The position numbers were made by a program, and so were the translations under genes. From Octopus sinensis (Eukaryota), in NCBI RefSeq assembly GCF_006345805.1, contig NC_042997.1, positions 63,240,001 through 63,304,000 of the forward strand: a DNA stretch of 64,000 nt, read 5' to 3'. Under the pieces are notes generated by a model, which had not been told where the DNA came from, ran no database searches, and saw only the letters and a program-made list of their open reading frames with translations. Shown one piece after another: positions 5,128 through 63,835 of the stretch (positions within the stretch are counted from its first letter, which is position 1; the number at the start of each line of letters is the position of its first letter).

Positions 5128-5213
5128 ATTTTCCTGAAGAGAAAGCTGCATAATGGACTCCTTATTCATTCGGAATTAGGGACTTTGCAGACTTCGAAAT
5201 ATATGTCGAAAGT
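5128..5213 (+). ncRNA. Type I hammerhead ribozyme (complete)
   Basis: Stem I ATTTTC/GAAAGT; core CTGAAGA 5134-5140; stem II GAAAGCTGCA...TGCAGACTTC; GAAA 5196-5199; near-palindromic stem III ATATATGT; GUC cleavage after 5207. Confidence 0.85.
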
Positions 5214-5469
5214 AAAATAAAGGAATTTTGTTAAATCTTCGTTCAGCTCCATTCTTTCCTATACTTAATATATTAAACTTCAATTTCCGCACTGAGGCAC
5301 GTATTTTATACCCTATGGTCGTTACTTCAACCGTGCTTTTTCTGTTGTGAGTTTGCTACCCAGGTATCGGTTATCTTTCGAATTATCCGTAATAAGATAA
5401 TTCATTTGTCTACTTAAATAATTATATATATATATATATATATATATATATATATATATATATATGTAT

Positions 5470-5940
5470 TTGTTGAAATAGAAAGATGAATTTTCTTGTT
5501 ACAGATTATTCAAAAGTTTAACCGATACCTGGGTAGCAAAAATCACAGCAGAAAATACACGGTTGGAGATAAGACCATTTGGTGTTGCAACCGTGCGTTG
5601 GTGCGGATAATTGAAGTTTAATATTATTATTGAATGGGAGAAATGGAGTTGAACGAAGATTGTACAGAATTCCTTTTATTACATTCTACACATGTTTCAA
5701 AAGCCACAAATTTCCAAATTCTGATTAAATAAGGGTACCATATTGTGGCTTTCTCATCAGGAAAAGACAGGAATTCCGTTGACAGAACAAAACAGAACAG
5801 AGGCGCAGCAATTCGAACGAGGAGGCTCTTTAAGAGCCCATGGCTGAACTGTTTATCAATGTACGCTGAAATCGGGGATTTGGTGAGTTGAAGATATCTA
5901 CAGGTCAGGCGGCGGTCAGTTCTAGTGGGTGAGAGCAAGG
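5470..5940 (-). mobile_element. Second, diverged PLE pLTR of the same family, tail-to-tail with the first across (TA)n
   Basis: 5470-5770 is a diverged reverse complement of about 5125-5420 (e.g. aaccgatacctgggtagcaaa vs tttgctacccaggtatcggtt). Confidence 0.85.
5682..5765 (-). ncRNA. Type I hammerhead ribozyme (complete)
   Basis: Minus strand: TTTTC CTGATGA GAAAGCCACAA...TTGTGGCTTTT GAAA CATGTG TA GAATG; 11-bp stem II, GUA triplet, stem I with one mismatch. Confidence 0.85.
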
Positions 5941-5987
5941 GGAGTGGAGATGTTATGTGTGACCAACTCTAATGTTCTATATATATG

Positions 5988-6327
5988 CTTCAGTCTTAGA
6001 CTGAGGTCGCACTAGAGCAATGCCTTGGAGAGGGGTTTAGTCAAACAAATCGGCCTTGGTTCTTTTTGCTGAACCACTTGATTACAGGAACGTAGACAAT
6101 ACAACGTCGGTTGTCAGGCGCTGGTGTGATACAAACATTTAACTCAAAGACACACACATACACGGTGGACTTTTTCAATACCGTCTTCCTAATCCGTAGA
6201 TCCACTGATAATGGTTTTGGTTGGCCCAAGCTATATAACATTAACTCAATATGACATGCAGTCGTGATGAACTAAGAGCTATGTTTATTGGGAAGCAAAA
6301 CTCTTACCACACAGCTGTGTCTGCGCC
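5988..6327 (-). mobile_element. tRNA-derived SINE, family A (head ggcgcagg..ggctgtgtggtaag)
   Basis: Similar to copies at 15945-16328 and 21443-21775; box A/B-like head, gactgaa tail. Confidence 0.75.
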
Positions 6328-59574: not shown

Positions 59575-60790
59575 TTAAATATACATACGTTTCTTCTTTC
59601 TCATTGATTTTCAAAGAGATATTCACATCAGTAGGATAGCTGACTTCTATGACAGTACATACTTCTTTCTTGTCTGTCCCAAACAACAATATCCAGGTTA
59701 TTATTCTTCCATGTGACAAATGTTTTGATGAGAATGTTCCGCTAGAATTCTTTGTGCTGATATTTGTATATGTATTCAATAACAAGAGGTTCTCTATATT
59801 TATCCCAGGATAGTCTTTTTTCGGATTGTTTTTTTGCAACAACGTCATGTCGCATAGGGAGGTTGCACCTTGATGACGCTTTTGGGCAGTTACTAATTGC
59901 ATGTGTGATATCTTCCACAGAAATATGTCATATTCTATAGTTGCGGTTGCATCTTGGAACTCCAAGGCATGTCACTGTCTCTTTTGTGGATTAATTATTT
60001 AGCAGCAATATTTTGTCCTTGGACTGCAAATGCATGACCTTCGAAGTGTGACGTAGCGGTCACGAGTCCAAGAGAAGCTTCGCTTCATGTCAATGATACT
60101 CTCTTCGAGAAACATACACATGTATGGTTTTTTTGGGTTGCTGAATATTTCACCTCCAGGTTTTCTTTGAGTTACCCTAATCCGACTGATTTTGAGATGT
60201 ATAGGAGGTCATTAGGAAGAGAGTCCTTCCCGAGGAGCTCACTTCTAACATGTAGGATACTATTTTCTTCACTTTTCAGCACGAAGTTAATATATTTATA
60301 CTTGCTGCTGTTGTTTAGCGATGTGCATAACCGAGTACTCTTTCTCATTGTATATATTCCCCTCTTTGCACTTTTTGCGGATATGCTTATTGTTGTCTTG
60401 TTGATGATTGTTCCCAATTACATTCTTAATGTCTCCATTCTTCAACCATAACTAAGTCTCGTCTGCTGCGATGTCCCGCATTTGTCTGAGATGCTGACCG
60501 TGATATTTTTTTCTCGCTCATGTTTGTTTTTCTTTTCTTGTATTCCGTTGCCATCTTCACAAATTTTTCCTCTTCTCTGGAAGGTCAGTTCAGTCTTTCT
60601 GAGCTGCTTACCACATACTCGTCTGTATACCGTTTTCTCTAAACTATTTATATCCGTACCTTCCGTGGTATACACAACATATCATCACTGTCTCTGGGAT
60701 GCAGGGATCTATACACGGACGTTATCTTTCTGGTCTTTAAATGAATGGCCCCTATCTCTTTCTTATTCCAGTTCAGGAAAACAGCAAAAT
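59575..60790 (-). mobile_element. R4/Dong-type RLE retrotransposon fragment (same subfamily as 38130-38780)
   Basis: FEGHAFAVQGQNIAAK*LIHKR; LPMRHDVVAK; DKKEVCTVIEVSYPTDVNISLKINEKE. Confidence 0.8.
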
Positions 60791-62799
60791 ATCACATCAG
60801 AGAGACTGCTCGTGTGTTACAGTAGTGATGATTTCCCTTTTCATTCAGTTTTGAGCTAGCAAATTTCTATTCTCCTGAGACATTAATCACCACCACCACC
60901 ACCACCACCACCACCACCACCACCACCACCACCACCACCACCATCGTCATCATCATCATCATCATCATCATTATATAAATGCAATCATGATCAGACGTAT
61001 CTATTTCAAATACACTTAGATATATGCAACAGTCCCAGTGTGGTTGAACAGAGTTGTGTTTGCGCATTGTACAATTTTCACTGAAATATTGAATAGTTTG
61101 TTTCACAATCATGACATACGGGGCGCCATCATATCGCATGACAGCATAGTCAATGTACCTCTATCGTAATTAAGGGTACCCAAGATTAAAATTTCGTAGA
61201 TATTGATTGTAGAAGTGTGTGGCATTGATTGTAATACATGGATAAACAGTAAGGGAAACGCTTCTGCAGCATTACAGTCAAAATCTTTGAGCAACGTACA
61301 CGTTAATGGAATGAACTTGTACTACTTTAGTTTATCCACGATCAATAACCGTGGCAAATAACGTGAGCTGGTGTGCTAAAAACTAAAATGTGTAATGATT
61401 AGTTATTTTATTTAAGTATGATATAAAAGTAGTACAATTACATGGAACTACTTAGTACGGTTTGTGTTTGTAATATGTAATCAATATTCATAGTAATGAC
61501 GTAATTCAACTAATTGTGTATAGAAGGTGAGGAAATAACTTTGGTGTTTTTATAACGTGATTAGTGTTTTAATAATTAGTAACCAGAATCTACTTATAAA
61601 TTTTTTATTACACTATCCTAAAACGTTGCAACGCTTGCTAATGAAAATGAAGACATCTAAATCCATTTATTAGCTGTAAAAATCAGAGATAATGTAACAA
61701 AACATGTCCTAGTGCATTTAAATGAGATTATATAAATATACACATATATATTACGTAGACATACACATTGATGTACATTTATATCTATCTATCTATCTAT
61801 CTATCTATCTATCTATCTATCTATCTATCTATCTATCTCTATATATATATACATATGCACACACACACACACACACACACACACCACACACACACACACA
61901 CACACATATATATATATATATATATATACACATATAAATACATGTATATATATGTATATATATTTATTTACATTAAGGGTATTTCTACACGTAAATGCCT
62001 CACGCTATGAAAGACCCTTAAAATCAAAACTTGAATTTAAGAGTCCGTCATATCCTGAGGAATTTATCTGTAGTAATGCCCTTACTGTAGATAAAAATAT
62101 TTACAGGGAATAATTGTAATTGTTTTCCTTATAAGGTTTTCACCTGACCGCATGATAAATTCTTATAAAGATTTTCATTTTAAATTTATATATATATACT
62201 TGGAAGTGGATGCGTGGCGTTCGATCATGTAATAACAAAATAGTAAATAAATCATATGCATATATACATACATATATATATTATATATATATATATATAT
62301 ATATATATATATATATATATATATATATATATTATATATATATATATATATTATATATATATATATCTATATATATATATACATATATATATATATATAT
62401 ATATATATTAATAGAAGAAATCCAAGGGAACAATTACAATGTAGTTAGAAGTTGGTTAACTTCGCTTAAGAATCCCAGGAAATAGTCTTGGTATAGTAAG
62501 AATTATTTAGTAGAAAATATCAAAATATAAAAAGAAGACGAGCGCTCGGGAAGTTGGTCATCCATTTATTTCATGAAGTCCGCAACATACGTTACGATGA
62601 GCGCATTCCAAAATGTTCGGCAGGATAAATAATAGTGCACCAATCTCTTTATATATATATATTATATATATATATATATATATATATATATATATATATA
62701 TATACATATATATATATGTGTGTGTGTGTGTGTGGTGTGTGTGTGTGGTGTGTGTGTGTGTGTGTGCGTGTGTGTGTGCGATGGGTAAATTGCCCCCAT

Positions 62800-63255
62800 T
62801 TTGTATTCTTAATTTTGCGCATTGTTTGTTTTTGAATTTGTCGACTACATAATATAGGTGGGTTGGTTGGTCACCTTCTGTGAGAAGAAACAGCACCATG
62901 ACGCAATTCATTCAGTCACAAATTAGGAAATGACATGCTTCACTGATTGGCATTCGCGCTGGAAGCTCCAATACGAATATTTCAGGGTGTTTGTGTGTCA
63001 ACCTGAGGACAGTACAATCTGAGGATGAACTGTGGGTGATAAAAATCAAACATCCAATGAACATCATGGTGTTTAGAGTGATGACTAGTGATAGCGACGA
63101 TATGCTTCCATTCATCTTCCCAGACAGCCCCGGTCTCAATACGGAGGTCTACATTAAGTGCCTGGAGGAAGTGATTTAGGTCAAGAGGGTGACTAGAAGA
63201 CCCTATATCTGGCAACAGGACAAGTAGGAGAACCCAGTCCTGGCTGTCAGATAGT
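62800..63255 (+). mobile_element. DD37D/maT-like transposase fragment
   Basis: KHPMNIMVFRVMTSDSDDMLPFIFPDSPGLNTEVYIKCLEEV..RPYIWQQD. Confidence 0.8.
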
Positions 63256-63689
63256 TAACATTTTATACTAAGACGAAAACTGACAGAATAGATAAATAAA
63301 TAAATAAATAGATATTAAAGGTATATAACCATCTACACTTCGTTATTTTGACTTCATACACAGACACACAAAATTAATTCAAAGGTACATTAATCTTGAA
63401 TGGATGATTACATCCAAGATTACACTGGTTTGATACTTTATATTATTGGTAAAAAAATTCCATAAAATGAATAGGTCTACATTAAGTACATAATCTATAT
63501 TCTATAAAGAGAAGAAAATGGAGAGTTAACGGGTAATAATTAATTTATTAACATATTGGTTATCATTCCTACGATTGTTTCAATTTATGCTCAATTTATA
63601 AATTACAAATATATGTGATAACTCTTTATGTGTCCGGTCACTTCAGTAATGTAAGTACACCCGTACTGCTGGTGGTTCCTTTTCCTTCT

Positions 63690-63835
63690 TTGGACTTACC
63701 CCGTTCTCTTTTCGACGAAGACATATGCTCGACAGTCTAATTTTTTCTTTTTACCCAGCGTCAAGCTAGTAAATTACCAGAGCACGTCCCCTTGTTGTCC
63801 GTTAATTTTATTATTCGTTTATTTGATTTGACTGT
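63690..63835 (+). mobile_element. pLTR end fragment with degenerate HHR, ending at (TA)n
   Basis: ttcgacgaaga-catatgctc-gacagtc is a decayed version of the motif at 26898-26933; similar 3' tail. Confidence 0.5.

Follow-up and report, generated by a model that had tools for sequence, protein, structure and literature searches.

Why should a stretch of octopus DNA hold so many hammerhead ribozyme (HHR) motifs of so many kinds, and why should they point at runs of alternating T and A? The question is raised by 64,000 nucleotides (nt) of Octopus sinensis DNA (NCBI RefSeq assembly GCF_006345805.1, contig NC_042997.1, positions 63,240,001 to 63,304,000 of the forward strand), here called the window, whose own numbering is used throughout. 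The window is 33% G+C, has 127 rows of tandem repeats and is dense in (TA)n; tracts of five or more TA units, (TA)5+, make up 4.4% of it. The answer that we favor, with a probability of roughly 0.8, is that the motifs are conserved 3' modules (a pseudo-long-terminal-repeat, or pseudo-LTR, hammerhead with its tail) of at least 11 families of Penelope-like elements (PLEs), coding in some cases and non-coding in at least one, which target-primed reverse transcription would have placed in (TA)n.

Reality of the hammerhead motifs

The hammerhead motifs in the window are real: the type I core, CUGANGA...GAAA...UH, occurs with its three helices, helix I being open, at a frequency far above that of shuffled sequence. 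A scorer that admits the canonical core and the variants U3-A8 and U4C, and freely allows an extra base after A9, finds 11 motifs at or above 24, against a mean of 0.33 (maximum 2) in 40 shuffles made in 200-nt blocks and none in the reversed window; scoring with the canonical core, at the same threshold, yields 7 motifs against 0.00 in 30 shuffles. A strict descriptor yields merely 3 (0.03 in 60 shuffles) because its helix bases must pair, with zero mismatch. (A point of technique: both scorers and their thresholds were set after the sites were known, hence not blind, and the variant cores were added later; no information about TA was used.) Intact canonical cores with helices are found in 8 motifs and variant cores in 3; the remainder carry 1 to 3 changes.

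An earlier note, made from the letters alone, had listed eight complete and eight degenerate sites in at least nine families. All of the former were found again (core starts 5134+, 5760-, 11790-, 18458+, 30142+, 30133-, 37127- and 42304+; scores 26.9 to 43.1), but "complete" promised too much: several have helix II defects or a U4C core. The degenerate sites fared unevenly. Four score at least 20 (7189+, 16637-, 26929-, 57887-), and one of these, 7189, was misnamed, being a complete U3-A8 variant. The others are weaker: 58785+ reaches 28.2 solely with the requirement for helix I dropped, while 16725+, 7524- and ~63712+, with at least two changes each, eluded the scanners and are recognized by homology to scored copies. 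A strong hammerhead at 29607(+) had been overlooked; a relaxed scan of all TA flanks turned up extra candidates that are all weak. Masked self-BLAST of the window and pairwise alignments sort the elements into 11 groups without mutual blastn similarity (one of them joined by alignment only), designated F1 to F11 below, so that "at least nine" stands.

Helix III is palindromic; its loop, 0-2 nt long in 12 of 14 motifs, could not close a hairpin within a monomer. The motifs are therefore predicted to be dimer- or protein-dependent forms rather than autonomous folds, a helix III design known from PLE hammerheads (PMC4209133, PMC6765202). The supposition that all of the motifs fold as active monomers was rejected on this ground. 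The 10.1-11.1 pair is G-C in 6 of the 14 (2 of them with an extra base after position 9), G.U or A-U in 5 and mismatched in 3. The base of helix II is mismatched (U.U or C.A) in 30133/30142 and in 11790, and helix II of 42304 is out of register; 29607(+) has a 7-bp helix I and a 5-bp helix III. The U4C core (CCGAUGA) occurs in two unrelated families, at 11790(-) and 18458(+), and in both copies of the former family (F4); U3-A8, at 7189, is a covariation known in Schistosoma PLE hammerheads (PMC4209133).

Family F1 permits a closer look at the fold. Between its two hammerheads in the window, at 5134 and 5760, alignment shows two compensatory changes in helix II. Among 40 of 216 variant letters in contigs of other copies (described below), three lie in helices (5191, 5200, 5212), each of which makes a Watson-Crick pair where the window copy has a mismatch or a wobble, and none in the core. 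These comparisons indicate that the structure has been under selection in this family.

Orientation towards (TA)n

A cut site, a unique tail and then (TA)n: this layout, claimed in the earlier note, is a plain observation. (TA)5+ is located 24-267 nt downstream of the cut site in 13 of 13 motifs scoring at least 20 (10 of 10 with the canonical core model), where the background chance of TA at such a distance is 0.20, and upstream within 270 nt in 6 of 13; the predicted orientation bias thus exists. Other CTGANGA sites, which serve as a control, have (TA)5+ equally close in 6 of 31 cases. That 8 independent canonical loci should all be directed at TA has a chance of ~3e-6.

A family tied to a coding Penelope-like element

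Are these modules the ends of PLEs? Family F1 supplies the connection. Its longer copy, F1a (3736..5422, +), is a 5'-truncated PLE of 1.69 kb bounded by (TA)n at 3692-3735 and 5423-5464; it consists of an N/S-rich linker, a relic of a GIY-YIG endonuclease (4170..4552, with a frameshift near 4282), an untranslated stretch, the hammerhead (5128..5213; core 5134, cut after 5207 at GUC, long helix II, zero-loop helix III) and a 215-nt tail. F1b (5465..5975, -; HHR core 5760, cut after 5687, 222-nt tail), a diverged sister (~78%), converges with F1a on the (TA)21 tract at 5423..5464; the two sequences diverge upstream of the HHR module. Self-BLAST and alignment reveal two tail-only copies as well (29827..29960 and 30250..30383, both -), which are 131/134 identical and have a TA interruption in common.

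The endonuclease relic has 1,008 protein relatives at E 0.001 or less. One of them, P0019 (658 amino acids), has reverse transcriptase (RT) motifs, a cysteine finger and a C-terminal domain homologous to the relic (E 5e-10), which is the order of Neptune and Nematis elements (PMC8557442). The best named relative of frame 4259-4552 is an Octopus sinensis protein (78% over 33% of the query), and the frame upstream of it is 42% alike over 158 amino acids to an Octopus sinensis protein; the Octopus sinensis relative P0002 is annotated as an uncharacterised protein, and a further relative comes from Argonauta hians. Word-seeded protein search returned nothing for residues 125-208 of P0002. If we speak of F1 as Neptune-like, that is our assumption from a linker motif and not from a tree.

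Positions 3860-5420 (1.56 kb, 30 bins) were compared with the contigs of 4 sequencing runs; part of the words of this stretch is present in 20 of 24 listed runs from four organisms, and half in none. Contigs of all 4 runs span all 30 bins (587-1,782 contigs per run, mostly <99% alike), and contigs of other F1 copies have one base more at 4282-4284, where the window copy is frameshifted. Among the 32 of 4,441 contig pieces listed, 4934-5146 and 5006-5181 join the untranslated part to the hammerhead; across the CA repeat (4800-4865), F1a is presumably continuous. The summed contig depth of two runs presumed to be of DNA, which is not a copy number, rises 20- to 50-fold at ~5080, just before HHR 5134: a hint that short forms dominate F1. 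Coverage in another run, presumed to be of RNA, is not read as expression. The earlier note's PLE origin and (TA)n targeting are thus supported, by the relic upstream of HHR 5134 and by the insertion anatomy described below; of the proposed links between families and coding elements, that of F1 stands and those of the other ten, nine of which are too 5'-truncated, do not yet.

Three side observations concern the F1 tail. Twenty-four contigs of one run leave it at 5258 for TA-rich letters, and perhaps represent a shorter-tailed subfamily; the stretch 5338-5368(+) is T-rich, ends in CAG and resembles a splice acceptor (introns are possible in PLE pseudo-LTRs); and no clear start of an open reading frame was seen in F1 tails on reading by eye.

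A second, decayed PLE (23915..25375, +) has the RT motif YVDD and a GIY-YIG motif; no hammerhead was found behind it, and word-seeded protein search returned nothing for 24851-25174. Feature matches to GIY-YIG clusters, at 0.87 and 0.92, are leads only, the family standing on 15% and 10% of the cluster members.

Anatomy of the insertions

Five families (F4, F5, F6, F8 and F11) include head-to-head pairs, whose anatomy is that of an inverted 5'-truncated partner or a one-sided tail extension. The F6 pair (18125..18668, both strands; HHR 18458+, U4C, the left arm truncated within the core) has arms 205/210 identical, with an extra tail of ~52 nt on the left arm only. In the F5 pair (16480..16853, both strands; minimal HHRs at 16637- and, with GAAA changed, 16725+) the left arm ends ~35 nt further than the right. 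F8 (30004..30197, both strands; cores 30133- and 30142+) folds back on itself perfectly over 116 nt (30080-30195), about a midpoint in helix I, and its flanks are a direct duplication: the two F1 tail-only copies, 134 nt each, of which the left part lies at 29827 and the right at 30250. Two nicks in neighboring TA tracts could have produced it. At three tracts (5423, 7323 and 29793) elements converge from both sides.

In the F11 pair, F11a (57603..58063, -; core 57887) has a 21-bp helix II and a changed GAAA; its inverted partner F11b (58645..59028, +) has an intact core at 58785 and a broken helix I, and its tail runs into (TA)n at 59029. Nearby, 57425-57560(+) contains a decayed minimal HHR-like motif (57434) directed at (TA)n 57561; over its last 90 nt this stretch resembles, at 75%, the F11b tail end (58937-59018), and F11b may therefore be composite.

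In F4, positions 11596-11616 recur exactly at 12074-12094, 478 nt apart, so that the insert (11596..12094, -; HHR core 11790, U4C, cut after 11744) is one full unit and 21 nt of a second. No ATG frame on its minus strand exceeds 33 amino acids; the unit is non-coding and accordingly non-autonomous, and was presumably copied from a tandem or circular template. Its inverted 5'-truncated copy (12093..12256, +; HHR core 12231) is interrupted in helix II by an RT-bearing relic. No such unit junction was found at the end of the 17 other elements tested, none of the 18 forms a head-to-tail tandem array in the window, and no tail-to-head joint is listed for F1 in the contigs of the 4 runs. The earlier note had thought of mostly non-coding, retrozyme-like derivatives: F4 fits that description, one family in 11, but the tandem layout by which retrozymes are defined is absent from the window. 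"Retrozyme" was rejected as a name for the whole set.

A proposed mechanism

How might such insertions be made? The nearest guide is the Poseidon element of the lizard Anolis (PMC11167929). The endonuclease of its protein cuts both strands of AT-rich DNA; reverse transcription initiates at an internal position of the RNA, 111-118 nt into the open reading frame, the hammerhead cut lying at +26; a second RT start site produces an optional tail; and HHR mutants still insert in vitro, the hammerhead cutting only with protein. Internal priming of that kind accounts for the order of hammerhead, fixed tail and target.

By analogy (PMC11167929, PMC8557442), the GIY-YIG endonuclease would nick AT-rich DNA, here (TA)n, and reverse transcription would begin within the RNA, at a position that is characteristic of the family and lies ~90-270 nt to the 3' side of the HHR cut, with the consequence that every copy reads hammerhead, tail, (TA)n. 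The template would be uncut at the hammerhead, or a religated circle, because the inserts run through the cut site. RT would commonly halt early, at or near the hammerhead, and a second, inverted copy or a fold-back would complete the 5' end, a layout that is present in F4, F5, F6, F8 and F11. Tracts would be hit repeatedly, and nicks in neighboring tracts could duplicate the DNA between them, as around F8. The ribozymes are predicted to cut only as dimers joined through the helix III palindrome or with protein, most single copies being silent relics.

Weighing the alternatives

Several observations weigh against this account. Of 262 Rfam rows for the window, the 150 listed include no hammerhead match, and two small regions searched separately gave none. 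The active fold of the monomer lies 0.3-7.6 kcal/mol above the minimum-energy fold in 14 of 14 motifs, and the internal-priming data derive from a lizard Poseidon element. A coding PLE is tied to only one of 11 families, and for that family no piece among the 32 listed spans the CA repeat at 4837-4865. The truncated F1 copy has no RT, which its homologue P0019 does have, and its linker (3768-4170) has no CX2-5CxxC finger before the GIY-YIG domain and an N/S-rich stretch instead, as in P0002; the finger, present in homologues P0019, P0119 and P0134, is thought to assist TA targeting. Pfam recognizes neither PLE relic, with no GIY-YIG match in 225 of 255 frames of at least 55 amino acids.

Could the motifs then be chance folds in AT-rich, hairpin-prone DNA, lying near TA merely through its abundance? 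That (TA)5+ occupies 4.4% of the window, that Rfam matches are nil and that the scorers were tuned after the sites were known all favor this idea; 11 motifs where shuffles have 0.33, TA at 13 of 13 against a 20% background and 6 of 31 control cores, compensatory changes and a palindromic helix III make it scarcely credible. It is rejected for the top 11-13 motifs, and may hold for the weak candidates at 57434, 62055 and 11275-11425. A tract could also be the product of its elements instead of their target: reiterative TA addition, priming slippage or duplication between staggered nicks would make or lengthen (TA)n, and PLEs would build the microsatellite load. Long pure TA tracts form 31 clusters, 14 of which adjoin a hammerhead element or tail end (two weak candidates included); the duplication around F8 takes in TA, and telomerase is a relative of PLE RTs (PMC8557442). 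Against this, 17 of the 31 long clusters have no assigned element; several inserts have a TA flank at either end and a single tract can receive different families, as fits pre-existing tracts. We regard such building as unlikely, and it could coexist with targeting.

A closer competitor differs from the reading preferred here in proportion and not in kind. Most copies would be dedicated short non-autonomous units of the non-LTR retrozyme type, transcribed, self-cleaved, circularised and then copied by PLE proteins, with truncated autonomous PLEs the minority. F4 is just what a circular or tandem template would yield, a copy longer than its 478-nt non-coding monomer; the rise in contig depth at ~5080 hints the same way, and the divergence of F1a and F1b upstream of the HHR module fits too. 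Set against these are the lack of head-to-tail arrays (0/18 elements), the single 3'-end unit junction among 18, the lack of a listed F1 tail-to-head joint in the contigs, a helix III of the PLE minimal type and the tie of F1 to an endonuclease. Predominance of short units is possible, if doubtful; that the motifs are 3' modules of PLEs, coding and non-coding, directed at (TA)n remains the better account.

Other families and other repeats in the window

F2 (7180..7322, +) is the complete U3-A8 hammerhead (core 7189, cut after 7218), with a 104-nt tail into (TA)n 7323-7380. The same tract receives, from the other side, the tail of F3b (7381..7575, -; core ~7524), a decayed minimal hammerhead. 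Alignment groups F3b with the minimal hammerhead F3a (26798..26990, -; core 26929, A6 changed, cut after 26902, ~100-nt tail), with F3c (63650..63835, +; core ~63712), likewise a decayed minimal hammerhead with its tail, and with a tail-only copy between two TA tracts (40341..40430, -) found by self-BLAST. F7 (29600..29792, +) is a strong hammerhead (core 29607, cut after 29657, 135-nt tail); F9 (36811..37135, -; core 37127, cut after 37079) has a tail into a TA-rich array, 36629-36848; F10 (42288..42460, +), with TA on both sides, starts 16 nt before its core at 42304 and is cut after 42354, with a 105-nt tail.

Three further stretches are reminiscent of these elements. At 62045-62281(+), CTGAGGA, a 14-bp hairpin and ~170 nt precede (TA)n 62282, without GAAA, possibly a further family; 10965-11115(-) and 11275-11494(+) form an 80% identical head-to-head pair that carries GUC, a palindromic word like that of helix III and a heavily changed core, and whose right arm stops at (TA)n 11495; and at 40744-40885 an imperfect AT-rich palindrome of 140 nt, in which no HHR core was found, adjoins (TA)n.

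The window has other tenants. LINE (long interspersed element) relics with RT lie at 2-505(-) and at 12250-13143(-) (RVT_1, E 0.002 at 12707-12961); the latter is the one that interrupts helix II in the right arm of F4. Relics with restriction-like endonuclease motifs (38199-38780 and 59477-59971, both -) are, we presume, like Dong/R4 LINEs, and a pair of sequences 84% identical that adjoin long (TAT)n arrays (49632-50173 and 51408-51935) are what we take to be, possibly, the ends of a TAA-targeting LINE. There is a transposase fragment at 20294-20620(+) (Pfam DDE_Tnp_1_7, E 1e-9), a short element at 19019-19870 with 17-nt subterminal repeats and a helix-turn-helix-like frame (19238-19591), and a repeat of 120-200 nt resembling a short interspersed element (SINE), in six copies 69-84% alike (17046, 32581, 35500, 44659, 52588, 55881).

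Relation to known systems

How much of this is new? For metazoans, PMC4209133 describes minimal hammerheads by the thousand per genome; most are single and derive from truncated PLEs, and some form pairs on opposite strands at spacings of 100-700 bp. The window has in common with them many families, dispersed singles, opposite-strand pairs, a palindromic helix III, an extra base after A9 in some motifs and the U3-A8 variant. Its differences are several families with 4-5-bp helix III halves, a helix II of up to 21 bp, two families with a U4C core and a local density (given below) far above those genome totals; the octopus is not among the organisms named in the available parts of that paper. 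The pattern itself is accordingly far less new than the earlier note supposed, and what is unusual here is likely to be the local density alone.

PLE insertions with an inverted 5'-truncated partner, a one-sided tail of 30-40 bp and a (TA)n bias are also on record (PMC8557442): the endonuclease-bearing PLEs of the Neptune clade share with F1 the C-terminal GIY-YIG domain and a hammerhead near the 3' end, and with the window the anatomy of insertion, whereas F1 and its Octopus sinensis relative are N/S-rich in place of the finger. Anolis Poseidon (PMC11167929) is alike in that its inserts end at a fixed distance 3' of the hammerhead, in its AT-rich target and in its optional tail; here the target is pure (TA)n and the distances are 90-270 nt. 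With non-LTR retrozymes (PMC7229834; preprint 10.64898/2026.07.22.740005) the window shares, in F4, monomer copies of a non-coding hammerhead unit of a few hundred bases, but it has no tandem arrays, and most of its elements are indistinguishable from truncated PLEs. According to that preprint (Li et al. 2026), animal retrozymes derive from PLE pseudo-LTRs, and 1 of 9 dimers was cleaved.

Density and significance

The 64 kb hold 9 motifs if intact canonical cores are counted and 13 if all strong ones are, or 140-200 per Mb, ~1 per 5 kb, in a window that was selected for this very feature and with descriptors looser than published ones. If the window were typical, a genome of ~2.8 Gb (a size derived from PMC13282606) would hold ~400,000-560,000 motifs, above the published totals that were found: 4,000-9,000 in coelacanth and Xenopus, >6,000 in coral, ~5,000 in mussel and at most 120,000 in axolotl (PMC4209133, PMC7229834). 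For giant squid, Rfam annotation gives 235 hammerheads (PMC6962438), and in Octopus vulgaris 30 Penelope families have been active recently (PMC13282606); no figure for octopus hammerheads was found in the literature, and subscription papers, Repbase, Dfam or supplements may contain one.

One can speculate further. The PLE hammerheads of octopus genomes might number several hundred thousand, divided among dozens of families, coding and non-coding, and be the densest animal ribozyme landscape known; repeated priming and duplication at (TA)n might have helped to build the microsatellite load of these genomes, and converging or head-to-head pairs might seed double-stranded and self-cleaving RNA in introns. 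This is a tentative picture, to be held more loosely than the reading of the window itself.

What the window does provide is an octopod case of the described PLE pattern, and with its order of hammerhead, fixed tail and target it illustrates internal priming clearly in a genome. If the density holds genome-wide, much octopus DNA classed as unknown, SINE or simple repeat might be PLE ends, the many families of independent origin would amount to a library of natural variants of the hammerhead (U4C, U3-A8, the 21-bp helix II), and the octopus would become a test bed for the purpose of the PLE ribozyme.

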